Origin: a virus | Lineage: Duplodnaviria > Heunggongvirae > Uroviricota > Caudoviricetes | IMG/VR virus record: IMGVR_UViG_3300031521_000016 | Location: 35,895-99,894 of that record | Strand: one strand, 5' to 3' | Length of the DNA stretch: 64,000 nucleotides | Shown: piece after piece, positions 7,715 through 50,634 of the stretch | Position numbering within the stretch: the first letter of the stretch is position 1 | How the letters are laid out: every line of letters starts with the position of its first letter | Notes under the pieces: generated by a model | The model's input: the letters and a program-made list of their open reading frames with translations, nothing else | Database searches by the model: none | What the model was told of the DNA's origin: nothing | Made by a program: the position numbers and the translations under genes

Positions 7715-9340
7715 TTATTTCTCTGTTATTGTTGCATATATTGCAGTACCAAAAGGTACATCAAAAGAAGGATTATTGATTACTAACCAAATAAATTTAG
7801 AAGACATTTTCGATAATTCAGGTACCAAATCTTTGTTCATAGCATGCTCATCACCGTCAGTAATAAATACACCCATTTCCATTTTGCCTGATTTCCATTC
7901 TTCTAACATCTTCATTAGAGGAAGATCGTAGTTTGTTCCACCACCCGGTTCTAATCTAAAGTCAAATACAGGAGGTTGATTCAACATATCGTCATGGTAG
8001 ATTGAGTGATCAAATAGAATCAAGTGAGTCTTTTTGATTTTCTTAGCCATGATAATACCATTAACTTCACCTAGAACATGTTTAAGTCTATCATGTCCCA
8101 TAGAACCTGATGTATCAACAGCAATCATTGCTTTACCTAAGTGTTTAGGTACACCTTTCTTTCTGTCATAAACATAAAGTCCACGTGAGATATGTTTTCT
8201 TTTACCGAGAAATTCTTTTTCTTCAGATGCTATTCTACCTACGAATCTACGTAATTCAGATTTCCAGTCTATTAAAGGACGTGTCAATCTTGCTACACCT
8301 TTTGCTAATAGATTTTTTTCACCAGACATAGTTACTCTAGTTGATACTGCTCTTACTTGATCGGTTAATTTTTGTACAGTTTCATTATTTGGAATATCTA
8401 CTCCTACTCCTAATTCTCTCTGTATCTGTCTACTCAATTCAACAGTTATAGTTCCACCTATACCTTGATCTTCATAACCGTCTCCTTCGATTCGTTTAGT
8501 TTTACGTTCACCATCAGATCCGGTCTTTGAACCGCCTTTCTGTTCCTTTTCGGGTTTTCCAGCTTCTTTTCCGTCTTTATCTTCACCCGATTTTCCAGAT
8601 TTTCCGTCCTTTCCATCTTCACTGTCTTCTCCGTCACCACTTTCTCCGTCACCTTCACCATCTTCCTTATCGTCATCTTCTTCACCATCATATCCATCTG
8701 AATCATTGTCGTCGTCATCATCAGATTCTCCAGGATCTTGGTCGTCATCTCCAGAGTTCATATCTCCCCAACCCGGAGGTGGCGGTGGTTGTTTGTCAGT
8801 CTTTAAAAGCTTATAGATTTCTTCAGCTGCAAGTCCTACATATTCGTCTTTGTATAACCCTTTTAAACTATTTACTAATTGGTCCTTTGTTAATAAACCT
8901 TCATCAACTAGCATAGGATTTATTTCGTGGTCAGCTGCAACATTCCATTTACGTGGTTTTGCGCTAATATTCTGTCTTCTTACAAAATGTAGCATTACAT
9001 TATGTAAAATTTCATGACATAGTACAAATACAATTTCTTGTAAGCTTAGTTTTTCTGTCCAAGTTGGATTTATAAAGATATTGGCACCGTCTGTTGCCAT
9101 AGTTTTTACATGCTTACTGTTTCCAGGGACATATAAAATTCTAAATGAGTATACAAATTCACCAAAGAATGGATATCTACCGGTGATCATAGTAAGAGCT
9201 TTTAATACTCTATTTTTCACCTGATCCAAAGCAGGATCGTCCTGAGAGGAGTTACCCTCTAGGACTGCCTGATTTGATTTCCATGCTGAAAATCTATTAA
9301 AATCCTCAAAAAGAAGTGTTCTAGTTAATTCTTTTCTCAT
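7715..9340 (-). CDS. VWA-domain protein with N-terminal HExxH metallopeptidase-like domain and poly-acidic linker (CobT/DUF2201-like partner of MoxR)
   Basis: HEILH zinc motif, a D/E-rich linker of more than 100 aa, and the VWA MIDAS-like motif VDTSGSM. Confidence 0.7.
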   Translation of the reverse strand: MRKELTRTLLFEDFNRFSAWKSNQAVLEGNSSQDDPALDQVKNRVLKALTMITGRYPFFGEFVYSFRILYVPGNSKHVKTMATDGANIFINPTWTEKLSLQEIVFVLCHEILHNVMLHFVRRQNISAKPRKWNVAADHEINPMLVDEGLLTKDQLVNSLKGLYKDEYVGLAAEEIYKLLKTDKQPPPPPGWGDMNSGDDDQDPGESDDDDDNDSDGYDGEEDDDKEDGEGDGESGDGEDSEDGKDGKSGKSGEDKDGKEAGKPEKEQKGGSKTGSDGERKTKRIEGDGYEDQGIGGTITVELSRQIQRELGVGVDIPNNETVQKLTDQVRAVSTRVTMSGEKNLLAKGVARLTRPLIDWKSELRRFVGRIASEEKEFLGKRKHISRGLYVYDRKKGVPKHLGKAMIAVDTSGSMGHDRLKHVLGEVNGIIMAKKIKKTHLILFDHSIYHDDMLNQPPVFDFRLEPGGGTNYDLPLMKMLEEWKSGKMEMGVFITDGDEHAMNKDLVPELSKMSSKFIWLVINNPSFDVPFGTAIYATITEK

Positions 9341-9354
9341 TTCAATTTATTTCA

Positions 9355-10920
9355 TTAATCTTCATCATTGAAGACATTAGGATATGCATCTATAAGATCT
9401 GCTTTACATACATCTACCCAGTGATCGTCTTTTCTTAAAGCTGGGAAGATTCCTTGAATCATATTCATAGCTTTAACTGAGTTAGGAGCATCTTTAGTTT
9501 TCAATAACCATTGAATAAAGTTGTCTTGTTCTTTTTCAGTTAAAGAATCTTTATCTCTCACATAGTAGCAAACTGCTGATATAAGAGCATGAACTTCATC
9601 TTGTTTAAGTTTACTCCAAGAAGGTGCTTTAGCAGGATTTGTCCATACAAATTTAATATCTTCTGGATTAAATTTATCCATAAGCTTCACGAAACCGGCG
9701 TATGCATTAGCAGCTGCTGGTCCTACAGTAGCTCTAAGAATTGTAAGCTGAACTTTATCAGATACTGATCCTTCAGTTTTTGCAATTTGTTTGATTTTCT
9801 TAGAAGCCATTTCCCATGATCTAGGAGAAGGCCAAGGAGATGACCCAACAGAACCTTCGAATTCATCTAAGTCAAGTAAGTGGAAATATTCTTTGTTCCA
9901 TTTCAAGAATGCTACCATTCTAGGATCAATTAATAATTCACCGGCATCATTTTGTGCTGTTTTAGCCCATGTTTCCCATTCTTCAAGAGTAGGAGCAAAA
10001 TTGACTTGAATTACACGGTTTGATAGGGCAGTATCCCAGTGGAATAATTCCTTTTTAGCATCGATAAGGTCACTACGTCTATTAGCTAGAGCTATAATAA
10101 CCCATTTTGAACCCAATTTATAATCACCGATTTTACGTTCTCTCATAAGTTTTAGACAAACGTCTTGAACTCTTTCATCACATCTAGCGATCTCATCGAG
10201 AAGCAAAATACCTCCTTTTTCACCATTTACTGTCTTTTCTAGTTCTGGTTTTGATAGAGGATATACAGGAAGCATACCGTGTGGCAAAGAAATGTATTCA
10301 ATATCTTCTTTACTATTTCCTACTGTAGCAGGTAAACTGAAATCTTCAGGTCCCATGTTCATTAATGGAAAGTCAAGAATTCTTCTTTGTTTTTCTGCAT
10401 CTACTCCATAAAATTCTTGTGCTAAGGCATAGATAAGAGCAGTTTTACCGATACCTGGAGCTCCCCACATTAGAATTGGATCAGCTTCACCACCAGTTCT
10501 AATAGCTGAACGTAATAGGATTCCCAATGTTTCTCCATCAACATTTTCAATTTTGTCTGTTACCGGAAGCTTTAAATCTATCACATTTTTTTCATCTAGA
10601 GCTGTAACACTTTCGTAAAGAAATGCATTTCTTTTTCCGTTACCACCAGAAAATTCTGTTGGTTTAGATGGCATAGGTGGTATAGAAATAGCTAACCCAA
10701 GTGCTTTAGCTTCTTCGATATCAGCTTTTGTAGGATAGATTACTAATCCTTTAGGTTTTTTAGCCGATTTAACGAAATTGAAAAACCAAGAACCCGATCC
10801 TTTGAAAAAATTACCTACTTTTTCAATAGCATTTTTTATTGTGTCCTTAACTCCTTCGTTTGTGAACTGTGACGAGTCGTAATTTTCGTTGACAAAATCG
10901 TCAAACTTTTTAAATCTCAT
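9355..10920 (-). CDS. MoxR-like AAA+ ATPase (CobS-like)
   Basis: Walker A GAPGIGKT and Walker B LLLDEIARCDERVQDVCLKLM, typical of MoxR/CobS. Confidence 0.75.
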   Translation of the reverse strand: MRFKKFDDFVNENYDSSQFTNEGVKDTIKNAIEKVGNFFKGSGSWFFNFVKSAKKPKGLVIYPTKADIEEAKALGLAISIPPMPSKPTEFSGGNGKRNAFLYESVTALDEKNVIDLKLPVTDKIENVDGETLGILLRSAIRTGGEADPILMWGAPGIGKTALIYALAQEFYGVDAEKQRRILDFPLMNMGPEDFSLPATVGNSKEDIEYISLPHGMLPVYPLSKPELEKTVNGEKGGILLLDEIARCDERVQDVCLKLMRERKIGDYKLGSKWVIIALANRRSDLIDAKKELFHWDTALSNRVIQVNFAPTLEEWETWAKTAQNDAGELLIDPRMVAFLKWNKEYFHLLDLDEFEGSVGSSPWPSPRSWEMASKKIKQIAKTEGSVSDKVQLTILRATVGPAAANAYAGFVKLMDKFNPEDIKFVWTNPAKAPSWSKLKQDEVHALISAVCYYVRDKDSLTEKEQDNFIQWLLKTKDAPNSVKAMNMIQGIFPALRKDDHWVDVCKADLIDAYPNVFNDED

Positions 10921-11004: not shown

Positions 11005-11208
11005 TTATTTCTTTTTCTTTTTGTCCTTCACCTTTTCTTTGGGAAGTTCTTCTGTACCACCTATTTCTTCTATAATAGGATTACGTACTTTAGTTTTCCA
11101 TTCCGATTTTGGACAGAAAATCCATCTTGATGTTTCAACTTTAATGTAAGCTTCTGCATCTTTAACTCTCTCAATTCTTTGTGTCGATATCTCCTTTACT
11201 GTTTTCAT
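11005..11208 (-). CDS. hypothetical small basic protein
   Basis: Track ORF followed by a strong hairpin terminator. Confidence 0.4.
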   Translation of the reverse strand: MKTVKEISTQRIERVKDAEAYIKVETSRWIFCPKSEWKTKVRNPIIEEIGGTEELPKEKVKDKKKKK

Positions 11209-11827
11209 CTGGTACTATTGTTTTTCGTTTACGTTTTTTAGCTTTCTTTAAATTCTCTGGTGATAGAAGAGGGGCTCCAATGACTTCATCAATAATATTG
11301 AACTCAGCAGCTGTCACAGGATCCATGTACCAATCAGACTTTGTCCTTTTGTATACTTCCAAATCTTTTTTCGTTAATTTTGTACGTGAAAAGAGTATGT
11401 TTTCACATACTTTAGTCAATCTTTCTCCTTCTTCTATGGATAGTTTTAATCCTTCTAATGAATCCTGCACTCCCATTGCTATTTCATGATACATGATAGT
11501 AGATAAATGGTGAGCTCGTCTCATATGTCCTGATGCTAGGATAAATAGCCCCATGCTCATAGCAGAGCCTAGACATGTTACACATACCGGTGTAGCAGAT
11601 AGTTCTATGGCGCCAATTAAAGCTAGTCCGTCATATACACTTCCACCATACGTATTTAAAAGTATGTGGATAGATGGCCGCTGATATCCATTATAGCTCA
11701 TCTCTTTTTCTTCATCATCTAAGTTAATCTCATAGATTGCCTTTATAATGTCTTCTACTGATAAAGATGTAATAGTTTTACCGAGTATAAAGATTCTTTC
11801 TTTTGGTTTAAAGTCTAGTGTGGCCAA
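11171..11827 (-). CDS. ClpP-family serine protease
   Basis: INTYGGSVYDGLALIGAIE...CLGSAMSMG matches the ClpP GxSxG serine motif, and a His lies downstream. Confidence 0.7.
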   Translation of the reverse strand: MATLDFKPKERIFILGKTITSLSVEDIIKAIYEINLDDEEKEMSYNGYQRPSIHILLNTYGGSVYDGLALIGAIELSATPVCVTCLGSAMSMGLFILASGHMRRAHHLSTIMYHEIAMGVQDSLEGLKLSIEEGERLTKVCENILFSRTKLTKKDLEVYKRTKSDWYMDPVTAAEFNIIDEVIGAPLLSPENLKKAKKRKRKTIVPDENSKGDIDTKN

Positions 11828-12903: not shown

Positions 12904-13401
12904 TTATTTTTCTAATTGTTCTTCGATATAATTTGCAATTATGATAACATCTTCATCTCGCAGCGGCCAAAATTCTTTACCATTTACTTCTACTGCAAAG
13001 TCACCATCTGTTGGATCGATATGAACATTTGTTAATGTATTTACAGGATTATGTTTTGATGCAGAATAATCATCGATGCTTTTCAATAATCGACTATATG
13101 ACGAATCATCACTTTCTCTTGTAGACGGTTCATGCTTGAAGAATGAAATGACATCTTCATTCGTGTCGACCAAATCAATAGAAAGATCACTCCAGTCAGT
13201 TACTTTTTCCCAGTTTTCTACGATGAATATTTTGGCACATATTGCTATGAACTCCATATGTGCAAGATGATCATTGTATGATTCTAAAAAGTTAAAATCT
13301 ACATGTGAATGTGAAGCTTTAATGTGCTTAGACATATCTTCTAATGAAGAAAAACACGGTCTTACTATATGGCCATGTATTAACAATCCATTTCTGTTCA
13401 T
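12904..13401 (-). CDS. hypothetical protein
   Basis: Track ORF. Confidence 0.5.
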   Translation of the reverse strand: MNRNGLLIHGHIVRPCFSSLEDMSKHIKASHSHVDFNFLESYNDHLAHMEFIAICAKIFIVENWEKVTDWSDLSIDLVDTNEDVISFFKHEPSTRESDDSSYSRLLKSIDDYSASKHNPVNTLTNVHIDPTDGDFAVEVNGKEFWPLRDEDVIIIANYIEEQLEK

Positions 13402-14084
13402 TTGTACTTAGTTAGTTTTTCGTCCAGAATTTTTACACCTTCTGTTGCAGTTTGTTGAATAAAGATTCTGTTTCTTTCTCTTACAGGTTCATTGTTCGGA
13501 TCAATAATATAGATTGGAATATCGTCGTATACCAAATCCACTAATCCAGCTGCTGGATATACTTGTAATGATGTTCCAATGACTACTACGATATCTGCTC
13601 GTTCGATAAGTTCGGCTGCTTCGTCCATATTCGGTACACTTTCACCGAACCAAACAATATGTGGTCTTAATGCTGATCCATCGGCTGCTATAGAGCTAGT
13701 TTCGATTTTGAAATCGGCTGGCCAATCTACTATCTTTTTATCACCACATGATTTCATTTTAGTTAACTCACCATGTAAATGTAATACTTTCGTAGAACCG
13801 GCTCTTTCATGTAAATCGTCCACATTTTGTGTTATGATTTGTACATCAAATTCTTTTTCAAGATCTGCCAGATATTTATGGGCAGCATTAGGTTCGACAG
13901 TAGATAATTGTGCTCTTCGTTTATTATAGAATTCTAACATTTGAGCTCGATTCTTTTGCCAGCCAGTTACAGTAGCAACATCTGAAATGTTATATTCTTC
14001 CCATAGACCGTCAGAATCTCGAAAAGTTTTTATTCCACTTTCGGCGCTTATACCAGCACCAGTAAATACGATAAGTTTTTTCAT
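13398..14084 (-). CDS. Sir2-family NAD-dependent deacylase (sirtuin)
   Basis: GAGISAESGIKTFRD, QNVDDLHERAG and HGEL match the sirtuin Rossmann/NAD-binding motifs. Confidence 0.8.
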   Translation of the reverse strand: MKKLIVFTGAGISAESGIKTFRDSDGLWEEYNISDVATVTGWQKNRAQMLEFYNKRRAQLSTVEPNAAHKYLADLEKEFDVQIITQNVDDLHERAGSTKVLHLHGELTKMKSCGDKKIVDWPADFKIETSSIAADGSALRPHIVWFGESVPNMDEAAELIERADIVVVIGTSLQVYPAAGLVDLVYDDIPIYIIDPNNEPVRERNRIFIQQTATEGVKILDEKLTKYK

Positions 14085-17784: not shown

Positions 17785-18479
17785 GATACAGTTTTATGTG
17801 AATAAAATTTATAGATGACATATGCATATATTAAGACTGTTAAGAATATAGGAGCATCTCCTACTGGTACACTATTTGGACATTCTACATATACATGTTC
17901 CCATTCCCAATATTCAATCCATCTATTTTGACACCAGTCATAATATACCTTTTTAACTTTAACGTTATATCCACAATCTGAATAGCATCTTTGTAACACA
18001 GATGCATTACCTATTGATGTCTTATTTGCATCTTCACTATTAAGAACTGAAGCATCTGCAGTAGGTGCTAGTTGACTACTAGATGTAGAAGTAGTATTTT
18101 TAGATCCGAATGAATTAAAGAATATTGGTTGTACAGATTGTGGTTGAATACTGGTTTCAGTCTTTACATTCATAGAAGAATTATATGTCATTGCTCCATT
18201 ACTTACTGAATTTACTGGAGTAGCATTAAATGCTTCATATTTATTTTCAGTAGGTGTCATCTGAATGCTATTAAAATCTTCATTATTATCAGACTCAGCT
18301 GAATAACTATTCATTTTTGGTGCATTAGGGATCGTAGTCTTGAAATTAGAATCAAAATTACTTTTCGTTACACTAGTATAGAAAAATGACTCATGATTCT
18401 CTGTGAGTTGAGTTACTGTTAATGATAATACGCTTATCAATGTAATAACTAGAGCGATAATGAATAGATTTTTTTTCAT
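17781..18479 (-). CDS. S/T/N-rich membrane protein with Cys-rich C-terminus
   Basis: TM segments at the N- and C-termini flank a low-complexity middle. Confidence 0.45.
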   Translation of the reverse strand: MKKNLFIIALVITLISVLSLTVTQLTENHESFFYTSVTKSNFDSNFKTTIPNAPKMNSYSAESDNNEDFNSIQMTPTENKYEAFNATPVNSVSNGAMTYNSSMNVKTETSIQPQSVQPIFFNSFGSKNTTSTSSSQLAPTADASVLNSEDANKTSIGNASVLQRCYSDCGYNVKVKKVYYDWCQNRWIEYWEWEHVYVECPNSVPVGDAPIFLTVLIYAYVIYKFYSHKTVS

Positions 18480-18985
18480 GGTTGATGATTAAATACATTT
18501 ATTGCATACCCATTTACCATGGGTCTTCCAGTGTTATATGCTCCAAATGCTAGTTTCCAACTTCCGTACGTATTATATAAATGTCTAATAATTTTCATAC
18601 TAGTTTGTACGTTAAAATCGATGTCATTCAGTAACATTTCTCTTGTGACTTTACGTCTTGGCCACATTAACTTAGCAGTAGAAGGCATAATTTGCATGGC
18701 TCCTAATGCTCCAACAGGTGATATTCTGGATTGATTATAAGACCATTGAAAGGGTCCCCTATATTCAGTTTCCTGTTTTGCAATCCCATATGCATATTGT
18801 TTAGGGACATCATATTCTTCAGCATACTTTTCAATGCAGTAATGCATCTGTAAGCAAGGCGGAATCATTTTAGATGTAGCATTGGGATTAAATTTATCAC
18901 CAGTTGCTATTGCTGGTGCAGTCCTAAAACTTAGGAATACGATAGCAATAGCAGACATGATAATTGTTGTGTAAAATAATTTCAT
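18476..18985 (-). CDS. lytic transglycosylase (SLT domain) with signal anchor, endolysin-like
   Basis: GIAKQETEY...GALGAMQIMPSTAKLM matches the SLT catalytic motif. Confidence 0.7.
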   Translation of the reverse strand: MKLFYTTIIMSAIAIVFLSFRTAPAIATGDKFNPNATSKMIPPCLQMHYCIEKYAEEYDVPKQYAYGIAKQETEYRGPFQWSYNQSRISPVGALGAMQIMPSTAKLMWPRRKVTREMLLNDIDFNVQTSMKIIRHLYNTYGSWKLAFGAYNTGRPMVNGYAINVFNHQP

Positions 18986-19324
18986 TTATTTACTTTTTTG
19001 TTTAGCGTAAATGTCTTTGGCATACAGGTTGAAAATTGCCTGTCCAAATTCTTTACTGTAAAGAGTGTACTTATGTGTAGCACGGTCTCCAAAAATTAAT
19101 TCTCCCTGTTCGTTTAATGCAACAGTGGTAGTTTGCAGGTTACAAACAGGTGTTACTACTAGTGTAGAATTGTACTTGTTGTAAAGCTGCGAAGCGTAAA
19201 ATCCAATGACCATCGCGATAGCAATAACCAAAACATTTAACAGATTCTTGAAGATTGGTAAAATCTTGCCAAATAGTTTTTTAACTTGTTCTTTGTCGAT
19301 ACTTACTTTTTCATTTGTTATCAT
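18986..19324 (-). CDS. single-TM protein, holin or i-spanin candidate
   Basis: One central TM helix (LLNVLVIAIAMVIGFYASQLY); sits beside the transglycosylase. Confidence 0.4.
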   Translation of the reverse strand: MITNEKVSIDKEQVKKLFGKILPIFKNLLNVLVIAIAMVIGFYASQLYNKYNSTLVVTPVCNLQTTTVALNEQGELIFGDRATHKYTLYSKEFGQAIFNLYAKDIYAKQKSK

Positions 19325-19348
19325 ATTCTATGTTTTATAATTATGTAC

Positions 19349-19358
19349 AAAAATAACA
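19349..19358 (-). promoter_or_regulatory. TGTTATTTTT variant
   Basis: 25 nt upstream of the start at 19324. Confidence 0.3.
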
Positions 19359-19397
19359 AAAAAGCATATCGTAGTAAAACGCTACCTGACACAAAAT

Positions 19398-19422
19398 GGG
19401 GAGAATCATAATGACACTCCCC
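19398..19422 (-). terminator. hairpin GGGGAG...CTCCCC followed by ATTTTGTG on the coding strand
   Basis: Follows the small lipoprotein ORF. Confidence 0.45.
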
Positions 19423-19441
19423 AAAAGTTCAACTCTATTGA

Positions 19442-19588
19442 TTAAATAGAATCTACACAAGCTATCGTATCGACTACCTGTACAGAATCAGTTTTAATAG
19501 AATCATTTGCAGGTGTTGCTACAGTAGATTGTTTTACACATGCAATAAATCCCATGCAAATAATAGAGATAAGAAGAATCTTTTTCAT
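19442..19588 (-). CDS. small lipoprotein (48 aa), o-spanin-like candidate
   Basis: Manual translation MKKILLISIICMGFIACVKQSTVATPANDS... has a signal peptide and lipobox Cys. Followed by hairpin terminator 19398-19422. Below the ORF-track size cutoff. Confidence 0.4.
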   Translation of the reverse strand: MKKILLISIICMGFIACVKQSTVATPANDSIKTDSVQVVDTIACVDSI

Positions 19589-19695
19589 TTTCGTTTATTT
19601 AATTTGAATATGTTATAGTACACCCTTATAATTGTTCTGTTCTTGTTTAGAAACTGTTTGTGTGTACTAGATAAATAAAAAAATAAAAACTCATA

Positions 19696-20076
19696 ATGAA
19701 ATTAAAAAGCTTTTCAGAATATATCAAAGAGGATGAAAATGTAGATGCTCCTGTAGCTGCACCTAGTTCAGTAGATGATACTAGAGATGAAACGAAAAAG
19801 AAATTTCGTACAAAGAAAGAGTTACTGGGATATACATCTGAAAGTGAACCTGTAATGGCCGTTATAAAAGTAGGACATACTATTGAACTTACTCCAGACG
19901 ATTTTAAACAACTGAAGAATTTAAAAGTTACTCAGTATGAAAGTGACATGTATGAACATGTTAGAGGAGGTAAAGTATATAAGATCAAGAAAGACGGAAA
20001 AGGAAAATATGTAATTTTTCACTATCATAAAACATTACACAAATTAACTCCAGTAGGTACATTTAGATTAGAGTAG
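19696..20076 (+). CDS. hypothetical protein (only plus-strand gene in the window)
   Basis: Track ORF in an otherwise non-coding plus-strand gap, convergent with the Thg1-like gene. Confidence 0.5.
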   Translation: MKLKSFSEYIKEDENVDAPVAAPSSVDDTRDETKKKFRTKKELLGYTSESEPVMAVIKVGHTIELTPDDFKQLKNLKVTQYESDMYEHVRGGKVYKIKKDGKGKYVIFHYHKTLHKLTPVGTFRLE

Positions 20077-20103
20077 TCTAAATGTACCTTGAGTTTACTT
20101 TAG

Positions 20104-20940
20104 TTATTGCAAGTATACTGTCAATATATCGTCGAAGAACTCTTTGTTCTGTGTAAAGATCGGCGTTTCAACAGCTTCCCATTTATTTCGTCTTGCTCCA
20201 TTCTTTAGATACTCAACCTTTTTAATGATTGCTCCTCGCTTCCTGCGGTAATCATACTCATTCCAATTGATACCTTTTTCAAAGATCATATCTTGCATTA
20301 CATCTGTTTTCTTACCGTGTAGTTCTTTTGGGCTGTATAAGCTTTGAGCTACAGAAGAAATAGAATTGCGAGTGGCATCTTGCTGTCTCCAAATGAAATA
20401 ATTTATAACTTCCTGTCTAGCTGGAATAGTGAATACTCTAGCATCAAATTCAGCTAATTTTTTGAAGCATCCCATGATGTCATCATGTGTCTGAAAAACA
20501 AGATTTTCAAATTTTGACAGAGCACGTTTGATTCGCAATTCATTAAACTTATTAGTTGCCATAGAAGCTGATACACTTACAATCTTTTGGATATTATTAT
20601 CGTACCATGCATCGGTTGTTACATCATCGAAATCAGTAATTAATACTGAGATTTCATCAGATTGGACGTAAGCACATTTAGCACCTTGGATATTTTTACA
20701 CAGATATGCTGCAGTAAGATTCATATCTTCAATTAATCCATCATCAAATGGACGTTGCAACCCTTTCGTGTAAGTATGAAATGCTTTTCCATCGATTCTG
20801 ATTACTGCATATGTACGTCTGGGTAGATACATTCGAGTTCTGTTCTCGTAGAACTCTTTCATCCTGTTCCCTAAATCATCTTTTTTATTTTCCACGGTCG
20901 GTGTAATATTTAATGTATAATGCTTGTTGTCTGATGCCAA
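20104..20940 (-). CDS. Thg1-like tRNA 5'-guanylyltransferase (TLP)
   Basis: FYENRTRMYLPRRTYAVIRIDGKAFHTY...RPFDDGLIEDMN...CAYVQSDEISVLITDF matches the Thg1 catalytic core (RxDG, PFD, SDEIS). The start may be the internal M27. Confidence 0.75.
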   Translation of the reverse strand: MASDNKHYTLNITPTVENKKDDLGNRMKEFYENRTRMYLPRRTYAVIRIDGKAFHTYTKGLQRPFDDGLIEDMNLTAAYLCKNIQGAKCAYVQSDEISVLITDFDDVTTDAWYDNNIQKIVSVSASMATNKFNELRIKRALSKFENLVFQTHDDIMGCFKKLAEFDARVFTIPARQEVINYFIWRQQDATRNSISSVAQSLYSPKELHGKKTDVMQDMIFEKGINWNEYDYRRKRGAIIKKVEYLKNGARRNKWEAVETPIFTQNKEFFDDILTVYLQ

Positions 20941-21133
20941 ATTCTCTAGTTAATAAATTCGGCATTGCTCCGCCATTTATTACATCTTCTACATATCCTG
21001 CCATTTTAATAGCATTAAACTCTCTTTCTCTTCCTTGGATAATTCCATCTTCTGCAATTTCAAGGATAGCAGCAGCTAAATCTGCTGCAGTTTCGGCAGC
21101 ATTTACTAAATCGTAATGTTCTAATCTTTTCAT
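20885..21133 (-). CDS. hypothetical protein
   Basis: Track ORF; overlaps the annotated Thg1 start unless Thg1 uses M27. Confidence 0.35.
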   Translation of the reverse strand: MKRLEHYDLVNAAETAADLAAAILEIAEDGIIQGREREFNAIKMAGYVEDVINGGAMPNLLTREFGIRQQALYIKYYTDRGK

Positions 21134-21137
21134 TCTC

Positions 21138-21572
21138 TTAATCTTTTATGAATTTGCCGTGTAATGTACGGTATATAAGTTCTTTGACATATAGTCTATT
21201 AGCTGTACTTTTCCATTTAATGCCTCTTTTCCAATTGTACGATATGCAGTTAATCAACCAAGAATTTGACATTTCAGATATTGGAACCCATTTTAATGGT
21301 TCGTCACCATTCTTGCCTCTACCTCCTCTGCAAACATATTTTCGTATTTCTTTAAATGTGCTATCTGAATAGATAGAGACATCTTTCATTGGTGCTTCTG
21401 GATAATCTGACATTCTTCTGTATGAATTACCACCGTCTAACATGTATCGTTTACCATTAGCATCGTCATGTGTAACATAATGATGTGTATGTAAGGACGT
21501 AAGTATTGTACCATCAGGGGTTTGCATTCTGCAAACTAACATTTTTCTTTCTTTCATATTCAAATATAACAC
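21138..21572 (-). CDS. hypothetical protein
   Basis: Track ORF. Confidence 0.45.
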   Translation of the reverse strand: MLYLNMKERKMLVCRMQTPDGTILTSLHTHHYVTHDDANGKRYMLDGGNSYRRMSDYPEAPMKDVSIYSDSTFKEIRKYVCRGGRGKNGDEPLKWVPISEMSNSWLINCISYNWKRGIKWKSTANRLYVKELIYRTLHGKFIKD

Positions 21573-21583
21573 ATTATTTCTAT

Positions 21584-22006
21584 TTAGAAACCGAATTGTA
21601 TAGATTTTATCAGTCCTCGTTTTTTTATCTCGAATTCATCTACAGTCATACCAGATTTTGAAAATTCAGTAAATATCATGGGATCTTTTCTTATCCAGCT
21701 TAAAGTTTTACTGTTAAGTAATGATTTTTTCTTGATAAGTCCGAATCTATCTTTATATGCAAAATATGTATCGCCAATTTTTACAATTAGTATATCGTAA
21801 ACATATTTATCTGTAGTAGTACATCTTGGTTCAATTGTATCGCCTATAGCATAATATCCTTTTACGACTAACATCTTAACGTAATGACATGCAAGTCCAT
21901 CATGAATGAAACATTTTGTATCTAATATCGTAGGACTATCTTGATTAAGAAGCGAGCGCGTTTCGAATCTTTTTCTGAGTATTCTATCTAAAGTTGCCTG
22001 GTTCAT
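21584..22006 (-). CDS. hypothetical protein with C-terminal QFGF tail
   Basis: Ends ...KKRGLIKSIQFGF; lies immediately downstream of the PARP-like gene. Confidence 0.5.
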   Translation of the reverse strand: MNQATLDRILRKRFETRSLLNQDSPTILDTKCFIHDGLACHYVKMLVVKGYYAIGDTIEPRCTTTDKYVYDILIVKIGDTYFAYKDRFGLIKKKSLLNSKTLSWIRKDPMIFTEFSKSGMTVDEFEIKKRGLIKSIQFGF

Positions 22007-23263
22007 TTAGTTGCTAATTTCTATAATATAGCGGATAGTAGCTTGCGATATATCGTAAATGATGTATTCATTGTTTCGTAAGTCTGCTCCACCCTCAGCG
22101 AATACAGAATCGAAACCATCAGCTGCAAGATTCTTTTTATTTAGCCCGTAATTAGAACGTGTTACATGTTTCTGATTTCCTACGTGAAAGTCAAATAATG
22201 CCAAGAAAGCAGTAGCAGCAGAACCTCTCGCCCAGTATGAACCGGATAATGATGTATAGCCGATAGACTTTTGTGCTTTATCAGCTCCATAGATACCGTC
22301 TCCGAACATAGAACCAGAATATACTGCTCCAGATGGTCTAATCAAAAGCCCTGTCTGTAAAATGTTAAGCCAGTTTTCATTTCTAGAACCATGCCAGAAT
22401 GTTTGTATCTTTTTATTTTTAGCTGAATCTACTTGTTTAATGAAGCGTTCTTCTGTTTGTATATTTTTTACACCGAATGCTCTAACGAATTGTTTAGCAT
22501 TTGGCCCCATAAGCGATTTGATTTTTTGAACTTCTGCATCTGTAATTTCTACCATTTCAAGACCAAGCATCTTTAATGTATCAACTTTTTCATCTGCATC
22601 ATCTTCTTCTCCACCATTTTCTGCAAGTTTTTGTTTCTTCAACATTTCAACTTGTCCTGCCATAGTATCTAAAAGTTTTTGTTCTTTGTCCATCATGTCG
22701 AACAGAGTTTTGTTTTTTGTATCTTTTAGATCGAAGTCTTTGGGTAAAAGATGATAACTTACATGCTTCATCTTTCTAGGTATAATCGAATACAGCTCTA
22801 AGAATAAGTTGTTGATATCATTAACCGTAAGAGTGGATAATCCGGCAGATATCGTATTAATGATGCCTTGTGCTGCATCAACTTGTTGTTGTGTAACGTC
22901 AGATTGAGAAATCGTGTAGTTTTCTTCTACCGTCTTTTTAGCAAAAGCTTGTAGTCTGTCGAAGAATAACTTAATCTTAGCATTAGCAATCTGAGTAATC
23001 GTTTTCTTCTTGCCGGTTTTAACATCAGTAGCAGTGGCTCCAATAGATTCGATGAATAGTGTGGTTACATCTTTATAACCTTTTTTCGTTTTCGCTCGAT
23101 ATGTCTTTTCCCATTCTCTAATCGGATAAGTTTTTTCAGCTGGTTTACCTCCTTGTACTCTACCATATACGACTGTGAATGTTCCATTTTCATTATCAGT
23201 CATATGATAAAATTTGTTGTTATTTTCACTGGTCACCATGACCAATTTTACTACTTTCCCCAT
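22007..23263 (-). CDS. PARP-like ADP-ribosyltransferase with N-terminal WGR domain
   Basis: WGR-like N-terminus (NNKFYHM...VVYGRVQGG...KGYKDV). Catalytic domain FWHGSRNENWLNILQTGL...GDGIYGADKAQKSIGY...NNEYIIYDISQATIRYIIE aligns with the PARP1 H-G-S / Y-Y / E triad. Confidence 0.8.
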   Translation of the reverse strand: MGKVVKLVMVTSENNNKFYHMTDNENGTFTVVYGRVQGGKPAEKTYPIREWEKTYRAKTKKGYKDVTTLFIESIGATATDVKTGKKKTITQIANAKIKLFFDRLQAFAKKTVEENYTISQSDVTQQQVDAAQGIINTISAGLSTLTVNDINNLFLELYSIIPRKMKHVSYHLLPKDFDLKDTKNKTLFDMMDKEQKLLDTMAGQVEMLKKQKLAENGGEEDDADEKVDTLKMLGLEMVEITDAEVQKIKSLMGPNAKQFVRAFGVKNIQTEERFIKQVDSAKNKKIQTFWHGSRNENWLNILQTGLLIRPSGAVYSGSMFGDGIYGADKAQKSIGYTSLSGSYWARGSAATAFLALFDFHVGNQKHVTRSNYGLNKKNLAADGFDSVFAEGGADLRNNEYIIYDISQATIRYIIEISN

Positions 23264-23264
23264 A

Positions 23265-23723
23265 TTATTGTTCTACGTTTTTTATTGTTCCCATTTCTAC
23301 TTCTCTGATAAACTCGGCATTGACGATCCCTACTCTAGGTACAAACTCGGAACCATCAGGTAAGCACCATTCATAATATAGTGATTCGCCATATCTATTA
23401 GCTATTTCTTTTACTGAAAGAAATTTCTTTACACCCAAAAATGAATTTAGTTTCTTTTCCATTTCTTCGATAGAAACGCGGGTATGATCTATACGTCTAG
23501 ATGCATTAGCAATTTTTATTGATAGTACAGATTTGAATAATTCTACATTAGATGAAACATCGTCAAAATCTACATTGTAGCCGTAATTTTGTCCGCCTGG
23601 ATCTGATTCAGCCCAGTCTTCTACATCACCTCTAATGTCTTCTTCCGTGTGTTCATCTGGTACTATCAAGTGATGAAGTCGTTCACCATTTCTAAATCGT
23701 TTTTTTATTTGTATCAGTTTCAT
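23265..23723 (-). CDS. hypothetical protein
   Basis: Track ORF. Confidence 0.45.
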   Translation of the reverse strand: MKLIQIKKRFRNGERLHHLIVPDEHTEEDIRGDVEDWAESDPGGQNYGYNVDFDDVSSNVELFKSVLSIKIANASRRIDHTRVSIEEMEKKLNSFLGVKKFLSVKEIANRYGESLYYEWCLPDGSEFVPRVGIVNAEFIREVEMGTIKNVEQ

Positions 23724-24013
23724 TGCTCTATAAAATAATCGATTTTACATGCTAACATATTTTTATCTTCTATTTTAAATGAGAATTTTCCAGAAGTGTA
23801 AATCATTATGCAATTTTCATGATTTATGATACGATAAGCATCCTTAGGAAGAAAAACTTCTTGTTTTGCTTTATAATCATATTTCAAAACACATAGAACA
23901 CCGGCTATACTTGTTTCTACAGTATCTATTTGTGTCTGAATATTGGGGCTTAATTTTTTTACTTGTTCTTCAAGTTCTGCAAATTCTTTTGCTGTAGTTG
24001 CGATTATTTTCAT
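23720..24013 (-). CDS. hypothetical protein
   Basis: Track ORF. Confidence 0.45.
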   Translation of the reverse strand: MKIIATTAKEFAELEEQVKKLSPNIQTQIDTVETSIAGVLCVLKYDYKAKQEVFLPKDAYRIINHENCIMIYTSGKFSFKIEDKNMLACKIDYFIEQ

Positions 24014-31060: not shown

Positions 31061-32923
31061 TTATTCTTTAACGTCTGGTTTAGTCAATGGTTTTGTCGTT
31101 TCATCAGAGTTACGGACCATCTTTAAAACTTCCATACCTAATATACCATTTAATGCTCCATTTCCTCCTTCACCATTACCCGAAACAAGGACTTCAGGAA
31201 TAATTTTCACGTTGTTTATACCGATTTGTTCGATCACCTTAAACTTGGCGAAATTATCTTGACCCATAGAATCAACTTGCAATTTGTAAGATTCAGCAGT
31301 AGCTCTACCAATTGCTTCGATCTTGGTAGCTTCAGCCTTACCGGTAAGTTCAATTTGTGTTGCTTCAGCATCTGCATTAACCTTTTTAGCTTCAGCTTGA
31401 GCTCCAGCTTTAAGTTTAATTGCTTTTGCTTCACCTTCAGCTCTTTTTACTTCAGATTCTGCATTTCGTTGTGAAATTTCAACTTGTTGTTGAGCATTTA
31501 CAACTTCTCTTTGCATGTCTGCGATAGCTTCAGCAGATGCTAAAGTTTTTCTCATATCTTGAGCTTTTCTTTGTGTTTCAAATGTAACCTCTTGTTCCTG
31601 AGCAATTTTACGGTCAGTAAGAGTTTTCATAAGTTCGATAGGTGGAACAATATCACCGATTAGTGTATCAACGGCATGTACATTATATTCTTCTAATACT
31701 GCTGAGATTTTAGCTTTTGCGTCACCTTGTTTCTCTTGACGGTGGCCTAAGAATTCGATAACATCTGCATCTTGAGCAGAATTTCGGAAATAGTTACCGA
31801 TTGTTGGTTCAAGAACCTGTGATACCATGTTTTGCATAGATCCGAATCGGGCAATAACTTTAGGAGCTTCAGTAGATGGAACGTGAATGATCTGAGATAC
31901 ATCAAGGTTGAATGGGAAACCATCTTTTGAACGAACAGTAATAGTATTCAGATTCTTATCCAAGTTATGTGATTCTGTTCTTGCATTTGCCCAATTTAAT
32001 ACAAGATTTGTAGTAGGCACAACTTCAATCTTATGTGTATAAGGATTAATCGGATACTTACCTGGATTCAAAGTTTCAATCCATACACCCTTTTCACCTT
32101 TTTTCACGATGTTACCATGTTTGAAGTTTGCTCCGGTTACATCTTCACCTTCTTTTCCAACAAATGATATAACTACTCCAGCAGTACCAATTCCGATTTC
32201 AGTCATCGGTTTCTTTTCAATTTCCACTGCCCATGGGTTAAGTGAATATGTACCAGCCTGAATAACTTGCTCTTGCATACCTCTTTCTCCGCCATTTGCT
32301 AAGAATGTTTCAAAATCTTGGAAGTTATTATGACCATCGATAGTTGGACCAGCAATATTACCAGCACCTAATTGTACACCATCTAATGCAGTAACAATAC
32401 CTATCATTCCATCTTCTATAGATACAATATCAGTTTGGAATACATCGAACAATAAAGTATTAAGTCTGTATACACCAGTATTAAGATACCCAAGTTGTCT
32501 ACCACGTTTACCGCCATTGTTCAAGAATAGTCTGGCATTTTGAAAATTGTCAGAGTCTACACTACGAGCAAGCATAGTACCATCCGGTAATTTCTGTCCA
32601 TCTTTTGCGGAAATGATTCCTAATCTACCCTTTGGAATAACAGTAAGTGGTTCTTGCTTAATTTCATATTGCCAAATCCACTTAAACCAGTACAAACCTG
32701 GTGCTAATGTATCAGCTTGATAACCTGCTTCACCGTTTAATGCGATAATTTTACCGTCGGGTAACGATTTTTCTTTTCCGAATAGCACGAATTTTTTGAT
32801 GACAAGACCAATCTTATCTTCAGGAATAATAATCATCCCAAAGAATACTCTTAAGATGAACTTGTAAAATACAAGGGCTAGTACAACTACTGGCACCCAC
32901 CAATACGCTAATAATGCAATCAT
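31061..32923 (-). CDS. flotillin-like SPFH/band-7 protein
   Basis: N-terminal TM, SPFH-like core, and a C-terminal A/E/K-rich coiled-coil flotillin tail (AEAKKVNADAEATQIELTGKAEATKIEAIGRATAESY). Confidence 0.6.
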   Translation of the reverse strand: MIALLAYWWVPVVVLALVFYKFILRVFFGMIIIPEDKIGLVIKKFVLFGKEKSLPDGKIIALNGEAGYQADTLAPGLYWFKWIWQYEIKQEPLTVIPKGRLGIISAKDGQKLPDGTMLARSVDSDNFQNARLFLNNGGKRGRQLGYLNTGVYRLNTLLFDVFQTDIVSIEDGMIGIVTALDGVQLGAGNIAGPTIDGHNNFQDFETFLANGGERGMQEQVIQAGTYSLNPWAVEIEKKPMTEIGIGTAGVVISFVGKEGEDVTGANFKHGNIVKKGEKGVWIETLNPGKYPINPYTHKIEVVPTTNLVLNWANARTESHNLDKNLNTITVRSKDGFPFNLDVSQIIHVPSTEAPKVIARFGSMQNMVSQVLEPTIGNYFRNSAQDADVIEFLGHRQEKQGDAKAKISAVLEEYNVHAVDTLIGDIVPPIELMKTLTDRKIAQEQEVTFETQRKAQDMRKTLASAEAIADMQREVVNAQQQVEISQRNAESEVKRAEGEAKAIKLKAGAQAEAKKVNADAEATQIELTGKAEATKIEAIGRATAESYKLQVDSMGQDNFAKFKVIEQIGINNVKIIPEVLVSGNGEGGNGALNGILGMEVLKMVRNSDETTKPLTKPDVKE

Positions 32924-37130: not shown

Positions 37131-37895
37131 TTATTTTTTATTTGTTGGTTCTAACCAAGTTCCATCTCTAAATATTAGATCAAGAAAGCCCGGAATATAT
37201 GTTGATTCTACTAAATTCAACAGTTTTAAAGTTTTGACTGTATCATGTTTCATCATCTTCTTAACTTCTTCTCTTATACGTTCATTACTCACAGTCTTTC
37301 CAAGTTTTTCGAGGATAGCAGGTTGCTTCATAGCTTCCCAAATATCTACGTGGATATCGAAGTTTTTTGTGATAGAAAAACGCATAGCTCGCAAGATACG
37401 TAATGGATCGTCCATCATAGTAATCTTTGGATCGATAGGGGTAATCAAAATACGATTACTTAATGCAAGCTTGCCATTGAATAAGTCGATAATTTTGCCC
37501 TCTTCATCTTCTGCCATTGCATTGACAGTAAAATCTCTTCGTTCTAAGTCATCAGCTAAAGTACCCAGTGCTAAGATAGGAGTTCTTGTATCGGGTATGT
37601 AACCGAGCTCTTTTCGTGCTAATACAAAATCAGCAACTAATCCGTCATAAATATGACCATGTGGAAATTTAGCGCGAATAGTAAACATTTCTGGAGTAGA
37701 AAGAAAGATACTATATTTGCGTTCTTTCATCCATTCATACATGACGTTGAAACCTTCAGTGACAGTTAATTCACTGCATAAGCCAGGAACTATACGTTCT
37801 TGTTCATTTAGTACAAAAGTGAAATCGACATCTTTGTTTTCGATACCTAATAGAGCATCTCTTACTACTCCTCCTACTTTATAAATTTTTGGCAT
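37131..37895 (-). CDS. class-II tRNA nucleotidyltransferase head/neck domain (minimal CCA- or A-adding enzyme / poly(A) polymerase family)
   Basis: GGVVRDALLG...DVDF, ERRDFTVNAMA and DDPLRILRAMRF are the canonical PolyA_pol head-domain motifs; only 254 aa. Confidence 0.8.
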   Translation of the reverse strand: MPKIYKVGGVVRDALLGIENKDVDFTFVLNEQERIVPGLCSELTVTEGFNVMYEWMKERKYSIFLSTPEMFTIRAKFPHGHIYDGLVADFVLARKELGYIPDTRTPILALGTLADDLERRDFTVNAMAEDEEGKIIDLFNGKLALSNRILITPIDPKITMMDDPLRILRAMRFSITKNFDIHVDIWEAMKQPAILEKLGKTVSNERIREEVKKMMKHDTVKTLKLLNLVESTYIPGFLDLIFRDGTWLEPTNKK

Positions 37896-40489: not shown

Positions 40490-40927
40490 TTACACTAATT
40501 TTGAAAAATCTTTTAGCTCATTTCTAACTTTCATCAGGATTTTACCAAGCATATTTTTACCTACACCTTCGCATACTCCCCAATATTTATCTCCCCACCA
40601 ATTACCTTCAATAAGCATTGCATCACCGGTAGCAATTAATTTCTTTGTAAGTTCGGCACTTTGTGAAAATTTAGCCATTACGACTTCTTCCATAATGCTA
40701 TCTTTAACTAAATCCCAATCGGAACGTAGATTTACAGATCTGCCAAGTTTTTTACTCTCGCTTGGATTAAGCGATACGAATGATTCTCTAGCAACTGAAT
40801 CATTCGTTTTCATAGAATGAAATGCGCCTTCTGAGTTGGCATACGTTCTTCCGTCATAAGTAACTGGTGATTCCCAGAAGTTACTGAGGAATGCGTATTC
40901 CCCTTTGAAAAAGTCAATAGTTTTCAT
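40490..40927 (-). CDS. NADAR (YbiA-like) ADP-ribosyl hydrolase domain protein
   Basis: FLSNFW, E at SEGAFHSMK, MEEVVMAKFSQ...LTKKLIATGDAMLIEGNWWGDKYWG and NMLGKILMKVR match the NADAR signature. Confidence 0.75.
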   Translation of the reverse strand: MKTIDFFKGEYAFLSNFWESPVTYDGRTYANSEGAFHSMKTNDSVARESFVSLNPSESKKLGRSVNLRSDWDLVKDSIMEEVVMAKFSQSAELTKKLIATGDAMLIEGNWWGDKYWGVCEGVGKNMLGKILMKVRNELKDFSKLV

Positions 40928-50137: not shown

Positions 50138-50634
50138 TAGAATCCAAATTTAGTTGATATTTTTCGTTTACGTAAAAGCTTTAGTTCATTCTCATCAGAT
50201 AGTGTGCTCAATAAAGATTCACGTGTTATAGGATATACAAGTTTTCTTATATTCTTAACTATTAATGATTTCTGTAAAGCTAAAGCTAAATTCTCATATT
50301 TTGTGGGCAGCGCCGGTAATTGTATAGTTTCCCAGTTGCCAGATTTAGCAGTAATGTTCTTGGTTTCAATATCTATTTCTAACCCATAATCTTCATTTGA
50401 TGATAAAATCGATATAGCACATGTATTATCTACATTGCCGTAAAAAATCATTTTATCAAAAGTTTGTAGAATATCTATTGCACACGCAGTCAGACGTGAA
50501 ATGAATATATCGTCACAATCAATGAAACTTTCATCCCATAATACACTATGTGCAATATTATGGGATGAAGGCGTTTTGTTCACATCTCTGTAAATGACAA
50601 TACGTTGCATGTTTTTAGAGAATCCTAGAACCAT
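50137..50634 (-). CDS. hypothetical protein with C-terminal KFGF tail
   Basis: Ends ...RKRKISTKFGF; immediately downstream of the Nudix gene. Confidence 0.5.
   Translation of the reverse strand: MVLGFSKNMQRIVIYRDVNKTPSSHNIAHSVLWDESFIDCDDIFISRLTACAIDILQTFDKMIFYGNVDNTCAISILSSNEDYGLEIDIETKNITAKSGNWETIQLPALPTKYENLALALQKSLIVKNIRKLVYPITRESLLSTLSDENELKLLRKRKISTKFGF

Follow-up and report, generated by a model that had tools for sequence, protein, structure and literature searches.

A bacterial-type Thg1-like protein encoded by a phage and its possible role in tRNA maintenance

Why would a phage carry the gene for a Thg1-like protein (TLP), a relative of enzymes that extend RNA in the 3'-to-5' direction? 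The question is raised by a 64,000-nucleotide stretch of the IMG/VR virus record IMGVR_UViG_3300031521_000016 (hereafter, the window, with positions counted from its first nucleotide), in which an earlier note had placed a Thg1-like gene at 20104-20940 and had joined it with three other genes into a tRNA/RNA-end repair toolkit directed at host tRNA-cleaving nucleases. The chemistry of bacterial-type TLPs is well described, but their biological role is unsettled, and phage copies are annotated by the hundreds. We found that the gene product is a bacterial-type TLP whose catalytic apparatus is complete, a molecular identity that can be regarded as secure, and that its homologs recurrently lie next to RNA-repair and tRNA genes. 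By homology, the protein would carry out the templated 3'-5' repair of tRNA 5' ends, and we consider it probable that its role during infection is to maintain the tRNA pool, together with other enzymes that restore RNA ends.

The TLP gene and its product

The elements of the TLP locus are as follows:
20104 to 20895, minus strand: TLP coding sequence, 263 amino acids (aa) from a GTG start, or 278 aa from the alternative TTG at 20940
20788 to 20799, minus strand: RIDG motif (D35 in the numbering of the 263-aa form), located by translation
20650 to 20661, minus strand: SDEI motif (D80 and E81 in the same numbering), located by translation
20885 to 21133, minus strand: open reading frame (ORF) of 82 aa, of unknown function, read from the sequence directly upstream of the TLP gene

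The Thg1-like ORF runs uninterrupted from 20104 to 20940 on the minus strand, with a TTG start and 278 aa; thus, it occupies exactly the span first proposed for it, its translation matches the Thg1 profile, and the sole correction concerns the start codon. The likelier start would be the in-frame GTG at 20895, giving the 263-aa product. This GTG overlaps the stop of the upstream 82-aa ORF by 11 nucleotides (nt), the identical 263-aa product is called on at least 18 public metagenome contigs from several samples, with the same gene order in all of them, and the N termini of the relatives align from residues 1 to 8 of the 263-aa form. An exact-sequence lookup of the 278-aa TTG form returned no record, and one 278-aa JGI call (P0002) was listed in a further protein search; together with the 263-aa records, this call indicates that both starts exist in public annotation.

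The 82-aa ORF is without a match in Pfam, PHROG, or NCBIfam. Its product may be a co-translated partner of the TLP, its membership of the system being uncertain. A scan for sigma-70 promoters and intrinsic terminators between 19300 and 23600 gave nothing better than shuffled sequence, so that no transcription unit can be defined from it.

Family, fold, and active site

The TLP matches Pfam PF04446 Thg1 with an E value of 2.6e-28 (99 bits against a curated cutoff of 29.2; profile positions 2 to 130 of 130) and phrog_4717, "tRNA-His guanylyltransferase," with an E value of 6.6e-87, while the Pfam Thg1C profile gave no match and no NCBIfam model matched the TLP, the RlaP-family protein described below, or the neighboring ORFs. 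The best solved relative is the TLP of Bacillus thuringiensis (BtTLP; PDB 4KGK and 4KGM), which aligns with residues 21 to 272 of the 278-aa form (E = 1e-65) and is about 46-50% identical to the phage TLP over the whole length. In the AlphaFold2 model, built on a 17-sequence alignment (mean pLDDT, 74.8; pTM, 0.74), the polymerase-palm-like Thg1 fold is present at full length, including the C-terminal domain, and the top 32 matches of a Foldseek search of this model against the PDB are all Thg1/TLP structures, the best of them being BtTLP 4KGM (TM, 0.81).

The residues D30, D75, and E76 of BtTLP, equivalent to D29, D76, and E77 of hTHG1, are essential for activity (Hyde et al. 2013, PMC3701042) and align with D35, D80, and E81 of the phage TLP. 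It follows that the RIDG and SDEI motifs, to whose carboxylates the earlier note had tied the assignment, are both intact; moreover, D80 and E81 are retained in all 76 members of the clade and D35 in 72 of them. Furthermore, the residues with assigned roles in BtTLP (PMC3701042), namely, R28 for the incoming nucleoside triphosphate (NTP), S74 for the activation step, and K99 and R131 for the transfer step, correspond to R33, S79, K104, and R153 in the phage TLP, with K104 kept in 76/76 clade members and each of the other three in 72/76.

The phage TLP shares with BtTLP the fold, the metal-binding carboxylates, and the incoming-nucleotide and transfer-step residues and, by extension, would likewise repair 5'-truncated tRNAs by templated 3'-5' addition, using ATP or GTP for activation. 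It differs from BtTLP in being phage encoded, in two activation-site replacements found in about three quarters of the phage clade, and in an extra segment of about 17 aa between palm and fingers (residues ~121 to 146), the length of which varies across the clade. In particular, BtTLP K43 (K44 in ScThg1) is replaced by arginine (R48; Arg in 56 of the 76 clade members and Lys in 13), and BtTLP M158 is replaced by serine (S181; Ser in 57 members and Met in 12). The activation lysine, described as highly conserved, is therefore not retained, which is a variant and not a disqualifier for membership of the Thg1/TLP family. In BtTLP, K43 positions ATP, and the K43A substitution lowers adenylylation about 10-fold and leaves guanylylation unchanged (PMC3701042), so that the clade may use a different NTP for activation; the similar frequencies of the two changes across the clade likewise suggest an altered ATP/GTP preference in the activation step.

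These two replacements and the clade-variable insertion, and nothing beyond them, are what could speak for the TLP gene as a decaying or catalytically inactive remnant. We regard this as very improbable in view of the intact ORF, the identical protein on the metagenome contigs mentioned above, the conservation of the metal-binding and transfer residues across the 76 clade members, and the thousands of homologs at about 65% identity that are found in a large protein collection.

On sequence grounds, the protein is a bacterial-type TLP and not a eukaryotic tRNA-His-specific Thg1. The matches to eukaryotic Thg1 are weaker than that to BtTLP (Candida, 1.2e-10; yeast, 3.7e-8; human, 5.7e-6). A HINNLYN-type segment, which takes part in anticodon recognition, is a mark of eukaryotic Thg1; the position of the Candida CHINNLYN reads ATRNSISS in the phage TLP, as in BtTLP, and the segment aligned with Candida WRQVDCHINNLYN is WRQQDATRNSISS in the phage TLP, resembling WRQQDASKNSISM of BtTLP, the eukaryotic segment being absent. 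At the C terminus, the model presents a beta-hairpin (residues 223 to 242) that may correspond to the MaTLP beta-hairpin (R198 to R215), which binds the tRNA elbow with a conserved Arg (PMC4820378); R236 of the modeled hairpin is invariant in the alignment of the relatives.

Distribution of phage TLPs

A tblastn search recovered TLP homologs in 164 GenBank phage records at 29-51% identity, including Bacillus SPO1-like phages, phage G, Lak phages, jumbo phages of Caulobacter, Erwinia, Cronobacter, and Yersinia, and mycobacteriophages, many of these homologs being already annotated as tRNA-His guanylyltransferase. In addition, at least 370 IMG/VR contigs with a relative were recovered by two peptide patterns alone. 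The annotated phage Thg1/TLPs, such as Bacillus phage Bc431v3 gp143, Cronobacter GAP32_147, the "putative Thg1" of Pseudomonas phage 201phi2-1, and those of the Lak megaphages, belong to the same family, phrog_4717, and occur typically in large phages whose genomes also encode nucleotidyltransferases of the CCA and RlaP types. At the DNA level, they are all distant from the present case: a megablast search with 18000-24000 gave no match among GenBank phages, hence no near relative that has been sequenced; the best phage proteins reach about 50% identity, and the nearest relatives (62-68%) are uncultured.

The grouping itself has been published, since Iyer, Anantharaman, Krishnan, Burroughs, and Aravind (2021, PMC7824862) proposed that RlaP, CCA-adding enzyme, and Thg1 restore RNA-end bases after host RNase attack in jumbo phages. 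Both phage TLP genes and the idea of an RNA-end repair set are thus already known, and the present case adds little to them alone.

Predicted mechanism and companion genes in the window

By analogy with the enzymes of B. thuringiensis and Methanosarcina, the phage TLP would be a two-metal-ion nucleotidyltransferase that extends RNA 3'-to-5'. It would bind tRNA through the acceptor stem and the elbow, activate a 5'-monophosphate end with ATP or GTP or use a 5'-triphosphate directly, and add NTPs singly, with the 3' acceptor strand as the Watson-Crick template, until the whole stem has been restored; on tRNA-His, it could also add G-1 opposite C73. In the phage, such an activity would keep tRNA 5' ends intact during infection, on host tRNAs and perhaps on phage-encoded ones, and the damage could come from a host nuclease or from processing errors. 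Dispersed partners would assist, with the CCA-type nucleotidyltransferase and RlaP acting on 3' ends and an AAA_33 kinase possibly supplying the 5'-phosphate. The genes of these partners are as follows:
37131 to 37895, minus strand: minimal class II tRNA nucleotidyltransferase, CCA type, 254 aa, with head and neck only and no body or tail
42395 to 43588, minus strand: RlaP-family (PF10127) Pol-beta nucleotidyltransferase (Pfam RlaP, 5.5e-23; phrog_388, 1.1e-59)
5572 to 5976, minus strand: AAA_33 P-loop kinase, 134 aa, a possible RNA 5'-kinase (Pfam AAA_33, 2.4e-8; weak assignment)

The first of these, which had been read as a CCA/A-adding enzyme, is a real class II tRNA nucleotidyltransferase, with matches to Pfam PolyA_pol (8.5e-17) and PolyA_pol_RNAbd, to phrog_24229 (8.9e-61), and to CCA-adding enzymes in the PDB (6e-22), and with the GGxVRD/DxD, RRD, and DDPLR motifs in the alignment; the NCBIfam CCA models match it far below their cutoffs, and it may be CCA-, CC-, or A-adding. 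The RlaP-like nucleotidyltransferase rests on solid Pfam and PHROG assignments, as had been proposed, and its sequence search of the PDB gave no match. Since the RlaP of Pseudomonas extends damaged RNA 3' ends by one or two nucleotides (preprint, PMC12776372), the protein of the window would, by homology, do the same.

The third gene had been described as a PNK-like kinase. A P-loop kinase gene is indeed present, but it is a generic AAA_33 member: its best PHROG match is "ATPase" (7.4e-31), the similarity to "polynucleotide kinase" is marginal (8.6e-6), the NCBIfam Pnkp model gives 17.5 bits against a cutoff of 750, the PDB holds no sequence match, and no phosphatase domain was found with Pfam, PHROG, or NCBIfam. 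In a 247-kb relative (locus L021), an AAA_33 gene with 43% identity to it stands immediately before the TLP. Because the TLP would need a phosphorylated 5' end, a 5'-kinase would make mechanistic sense.

The trio of RlaP, CCA-type, and Thg1 genes co-occurs in the window and also in Lak phages, and at least two of the three are found in GAP32-like jumbo phages.

TLP neighborhoods in viral and cellular genomes

Removal of redundancy left 75 of 90 related viral loci, and the 10 kb flanking the TLP on either side were scanned with the proteins of the window and the annotated proteins of the relatives. The number of loci, out of 75, with a homolog within 10 kb of the TLP was as follows:
NAMPT-like: 25 (L019, L020, and L021 among them), of which 15 within 2 kb
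PRPP-synthetase-like: 22
Nucleoside deoxyribosyltransferase: 16
YqeY (GatB-like tRNA-binding domain): 14, of which 10 within 2 kb and four at 14-23 nt from the TLP
NADAR: 13
CCA-type enzyme: 12
HD_4: 11
Rnl2: 10
Homolog of the 82-aa upstream ORF: 9, of which 8 within 2 kb
AAA_33: 4
Rnl1: 3
RlaP: 2
PARP: 1

A distance-decay control highlighted YqeY, NAMPT, and the 82-aa ORF as concentrated beside the TLP, with the clearest decay for YqeY. In four jumbo-phage contigs (L021, L025, L030, and L079), YqeY starts 14-23 nt past the TLP; YqeY could be a tRNA-binding cofactor of the TLP, and no YqeY homolog was found in the window.

Single loci bring RNA-end genes close to the TLP. In L012, RlaP lies directly upstream of it; in L021, the order is AAA_33-TLP-YqeY, with SerRS, Rnl1, and Rnl2 nearby; Cronobacter phage GAP32 has RlaP 3 kb from the TLP, and mycobacteriophage Klein has a polynucleotide kinase 0.6 kb from it. 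Nothing informative was found near the TLP of Bacillus phage Kioshi. In four further loci (L052, L053, L054, and L062), the TLP lies inside arrays of up to 35 tRNAs, with tRNA-His 27-485 nt away in the first three. As a general rule, the local clustering of RNA-end genes had to be rejected, the CCA-type enzyme having a flat profile and RlaP being rare.

We also examined 80 TLP loci from GTDB representative genomes, some contigs of which may be prophage or mis-binned phage DNA. In six of them (L103, L106, L107, L111, L113, and L114; positions ~5000-8200), the TLP is followed directly by an Rnl2-type ligase (PHA02142 OB fold plus RNA_ligase) and then by 7-9 tRNAs in an array, tRNA-His being among them in five of the six loci; five of these loci are labeled Bacteroidota and one is binned as Hydrocarboniphaga, and one contig is 1.5 Mb long. 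We found no description of this cassette in the searchable literature, nor of any association between TLPs and tRNA arrays. Furthermore, a 24-tRNA array ends 30 nt before the TLP of an Armatimonadota metagenome-assembled genome (L129), and tRNA arrays flank the TLP on both sides in Gemmobacter caeni. The tRNA density in the cellular loci is about 2.8 per 10 kb at 1-3 kb from the TLP versus about 0.5 at 3-5 kb, the bacterial average being roughly 0.1 per 10 kb.

In the isolate Xanthocytophaga flavus (L108, 188-4503), a tight, co-directional cluster comprises a Macro domain gene, the TLP, tRNA-Arg(tct), a 147-aa ORF, RtcB, and an ADP-ribosylglycohydrolase, and thus combines functions of RNA repair and of ADP-ribose removal in a bacterium that has been cultured.

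Overall, three kinds of genes keep recurring beside TLPs: those of RNA ligases and end-healing enzymes, those of tRNAs or tRNA-binding domains, and those of NAD/ADP-ribose enzymes. These neighborhoods support a role in tRNA maintenance and not a specific target.

Evidence weighing against tRNA maintenance

Several observations weigh against a role of the phage TLP in tRNA maintenance. Within the window, a tRNA search and an Rfam search of the whole 64 kb gave no tRNA gene and no Rfam RNA. The four RNA-end genes, at about 5.6, 20, 37, and 42 kb, are unclustered and spread over 38 kb, 15-22 kb apart with many unrelated genes between them, and the screen of window ORFs (Pfam, PHROG, and tblastn with the Rnl1 and Rnl2 of L021) detected no RNA ligase. 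The activation chemistry may also differ from that of BtTLP, given the Arg and Ser replacements. Among the 75 viral loci, the tightest neighbors are NAD-salvage genes (NAMPT-like in first place), YqeY, and a small ORF of unknown function, the CCA-type gene is flat with distance from the TLP, as is Rnl2, and the tRNA density near the TLP is about 1 per 10 kb and merely twice that within 1 kb, which is not clearly above the level of tRNA-rich jumbo phages. Moreover, these loci come from related phages, so that the neighbor counts are not independent. Finally, we found in the searchable literature no defense or natural process truncating bacterial tRNA 5' ends and no biochemical or genetic study of any phage TLP; the activity and substrate are thus predicted from the identity to BtTLP.

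It follows that the four RNA-end genes of the window are a loose set and not a cassette. Of the toolkit first proposed, the CCA-type and RlaP genes, the published grouping, and the adjacency seen in some relatives stand, while the dispersal of the genes, the failure to find a ligase, and the generic kinase speak against it.

tRNA-His and the tRNA arrays of phages

The arrays described above raise the possibility, which we consider real but not likely, that the TLP serves the phage's own tRNAs, by adding or restoring G-1 on tRNA-His opposite C73 or by repairing the 5' ends of mis-processed array tRNAs. Huge phages related by portal to that of the window are typically tRNA rich, which is in keeping with this possibility, as are the four viral loci with the TLP inside large arrays, three of them with a nearby tRNA-His, the cassettes including tRNA-His in Bacteroidota, Armatimonadota, and Gemmobacter, and the raised tRNA density near the TLP in the cellular loci. 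Moreover, C73, the template for G-1, is present in 10 of the 12 adjacent tRNA-His genes that we examined, and TLPs have a second, anticodon-dependent mode of binding tRNA-His (PMC4820378).

However, G-1 is already genome encoded in 11 of these 12 genes, 10 of which pair it with C73. Its addition by the TLP is thus not required, and templated G-1 addition would work as a backup; an obligatory addition of G-1 was accordingly rejected as a requirement. The TLP-bearing phages also infect relatives of Caulobacter and Rhizobium, whose tRNA-His is without G-1, which we counted against a service to the phage's own tRNAs, together with the viral tRNA density and the lack of tRNA genes in the window. 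With respect to eukaryotic Thg1, which belongs to the same superfamily and shares its chemistry, the phage system thus differs both in the missing HINNLYN-type segment and in the genome-encoded G-1 of the neighboring tRNA-His genes of its relatives. The tRNA-His of L052 (6750-6824) stands apart: it has T at -1, T73, and two mismatches in the acceptor stem.

The same superfamily and chemistry also include the mitochondrial editing TLPs of Dictyostelium and Acanthamoeba, which rebuild the 5' nucleotides of the acceptor stem on many tRNAs with the 3' strand as a template. Editing of this type was rejected for the phages: unlike in the mitochondrial case, the array tRNAs beside TLP genes have no excess of mismatches at acceptor positions 1-3, and merely 10 of 137 array tRNAs, with acceptor stems as paired by ARAGORN itself, have an unpaired acceptor position. 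G1-U72 wobble pairs occur in 18 of the 137 tRNAs and are concentrated in the TLP-containing arrays of L052, L053, L054, and L062; these loci are inter-related, so the pairs may be a lineage trait. Register shifts by ARAGORN seem to account for several apparent U1-G72 pairs in tRNA-Ser.

Host tRNA defenses and the lesion a TLP could repair

The earlier note had directed the toolkit at PrrC, RloC, colicin-like, or retron/PARIS-type nucleases. Such a target is not supported for the TLP: PrrC, RloC, VapC, colicins (E5), and PARIS cut anticodon loops or stems, breaks that need ligation, while Cas12a3 cuts CCA tails and retron Eco2, which has been compared to HEPN-MNT, damages the 3' acceptor strand. 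A TLP would mend none of these cuts because it rebuilds the 5' strand only and needs the 3' strand as a template. The CCA-type enzyme and RlaP do fit 3'-end damage.

A dedicated counter-defense, in which the TLP, the CCA-type enzyme, RlaP, and the kinase together reverse the tRNA-end damage inflicted by host defense, is therefore rather doubtful in our judgment. It agrees with the published hypothesis for jumbo phages (PMC7824862), with the existence of defenses acting on tRNA termini (Cas12a3, retron Eco2, and HEPN-MNT), with the other putative counter-defense genes of the window (RnlB-antitoxin-like, NADAR, SIR2, PARP-like, and NUDIX), and with the TLPs found beside RNA ligases, RtcB, and Macro/ARH genes in cellular loci. 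However, all of the tRNA defenses that we found cut the anticodon loop or stem, the D-loop, the CCA tail, or the 3' acceptor strand, and none shortens the 5' strand, the sole lesion that a TLP would repair and one that requires an intact 3' template; in addition, no ligase was detected, the genes lie scattered, and the viral loci show no enrichment of CCA and RlaP near the TLP.

Comparison with known systems leads to the same distinction. All three enzyme families of the set of Iyer et al. occur in the 64-kb window, the portal of which is nearest to those of 460-735-kb huge phages; different from that set, where the distribution of RlaP mirrors that of RNA ligases, the window has its genes dispersed and no ligase detected. 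T4 Pnk and Rnl1, the answer to PrrC, embody the same concept of a phage enzyme restoring tRNAs damaged during infection, but T4 mends an anticodon-loop break by healing and ligation, whereas a TLP would polymerize missing 5'-terminal nucleotides and could not seal a nick. Of the T4-type heal-and-seal apparatus, neither a Pnk-type kinase-phosphatase nor an Rnl1, Rnl2, or RtcB ligase was detected in the window ORFs screened.

The published idea of a repair set is thereby sharpened: a TLP would help solely when the 5' strand of a tRNA is shortened and the 3' strand survives, which no known defense brings about, so that either a 5'-shortening threat is still undiscovered or the TLP serves tRNA quality control. 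It is possible to hypothesize, although we think it unlikely, that the TLPs of phages and other mobile elements are dedicated partners of horizontally transferred tRNA arrays and RNA-ligase cassettes, with which they make up a self-contained tRNA supply-and-repair module against undiscovered damage to tRNA 5' ends, which could be inflicted by a host defense nuclease or exonuclease or could arise from the systematic mis-processing of array transcripts. If true, such a module would give a biological function to bacterial-type TLPs, the physiological role of which has been open since about 2010. In any case, the neighborhoods of TLPs (ligases, RlaP, kinase, YqeY, tRNA arrays, and NAD/ADP-ribose genes) and the clade-wide Lys-to-Arg change are leads on their role in vivo, and the TLP-ligase-tRNA-array cassettes, the tight TLP-YqeY pairing, the proximity to NAD salvage, and the Lys-to-Arg change may merit follow-up.

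NAD and ADP-ribose genes

The NAD/ADP-ribose theme is strong in the window, with the following genes:
22007 to 23263, minus strand: PARP-catalytic-domain protein, 418 aa, with a weak WGR match, heading the co-directional gene block of the TLP
13398 to 14084, 40490 to 40927, and 50625 to 51176: the other NAD/ADP-ribose genes (SIR2, NADAR, NUDIX)

The phage PARP-like enzyme may be more unusual than the TLP.

Could the TLP then have a target other than tRNA 5' ends, in an NAD/ADP-ribose pathway, where, for example, the 5' ends of other RNAs would be rebuilt or modified after de-ADP-ribosylation or the end product would be a 5'-adenylylated or 5'-guanylylated RNA? The commonest neighbors in the viral loci (NAMPT-like, PRPP-synthetase-like, and NADAR) point in this direction, as do the genes for an NMN transporter and NMNAT that the unrelated Caulobacter phage CcrSC (L181, 8660-10654) has 3-5 kb from its TLP, the Macro and ADP-ribosylglycohydrolase genes flanking the TLP and RtcB in X. 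flavus, the PARP-like gene at the head of the TLP's block, and the two activation-site residues that differ from BtTLP. We nonetheless consider it improbable: the Thg1/TLP enzymes characterized so far all work on the ends of tRNAs or tRNA-like molecules, the phage TLP keeps the transfer-step residues and a putative tRNA-binding hairpin, and a PARP homolog lies near the TLP in 1 of 75 viral and 1 of 80 genome loci. For the NAD-salvage genes, no functional link to the TLP is known, and their proximity may be shared synteny of accessory regions in related phages.

Source phage and other genes of the window

The source is probably a large or huge phage of a Bacteroidota host; samples holding it are ENA ERZ27249138, ERZ27249649, ERZ27249838, and ERZ27250048 and Logan SRR8555681. 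The window has a G+C content of 32-36% and is coding nearly all on the minus strand, and the structural proteins it encodes include a portal of the T4 type, a DNA end protector resembling gp2, a head-closure protein, and a tail protein resembling gp15. The closest portals belong to uncultured huge phages of 460-735 kb (43.5% identity to LR756500) and to Prevotella Lak megaphages; among isolated phages, Cellulophaga phage phi4:1 has the nearest relative of the CCA-type gene and Tenacibaculum phage PTm5 that of RlaP. The nearest cellular TLPs are 58-62% identical and mostly from Bacteroidota, and the window also carries an OmpA-domain gene.

Further features of the window are as follows:
53496 to 53984, minus strand: RnlB_antitoxin-like protein, 162 aa (precomputed Pfam match)
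9355 to 10920, minus strand: MoxR-like AAA ATPase, paired with the next protein
7715 to 9340, minus strand: DUF2201 metallopeptidase/VWA-like protein
11171 to 11827: ClpP-like protease, near the MoxR/DUF2201 pair
4918 to 5547: Endonuclease_NS non-specific nuclease, near the same pair
1819 to 3261, minus strand: PfkB-family kinase and nearby cytidylyltransferase-like protein (PHROG heptose kinase/adenylyltransferase)
56957 to 57727, minus strand: homing endonuclease gene, inserted between the T4-type portal and gp2-like end protector genes
31061 to 32923, minus strand: Band_7 protein, 620 aa, 68% identical to positions 12655-14541 of L019
14407 to 14886, minus strand: ORF of 159 aa with no family match

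The RnlB_antitoxin-like protein may be an antitoxin mimic against RnlA-type RNase toxins, as is T4 Dmd. The PfkB/cytidylyltransferase pair could be like a split HldE or, alternatively, a nucleotide- or NAD-related pair. In L019, a 294-kb relative, the Band_7 gene lies 2 kb from the TLP, and homologs are found within 10 kb of the TLP in 4 of the 75 viral loci; for the 159-aa ORF, the corresponding number is 17.

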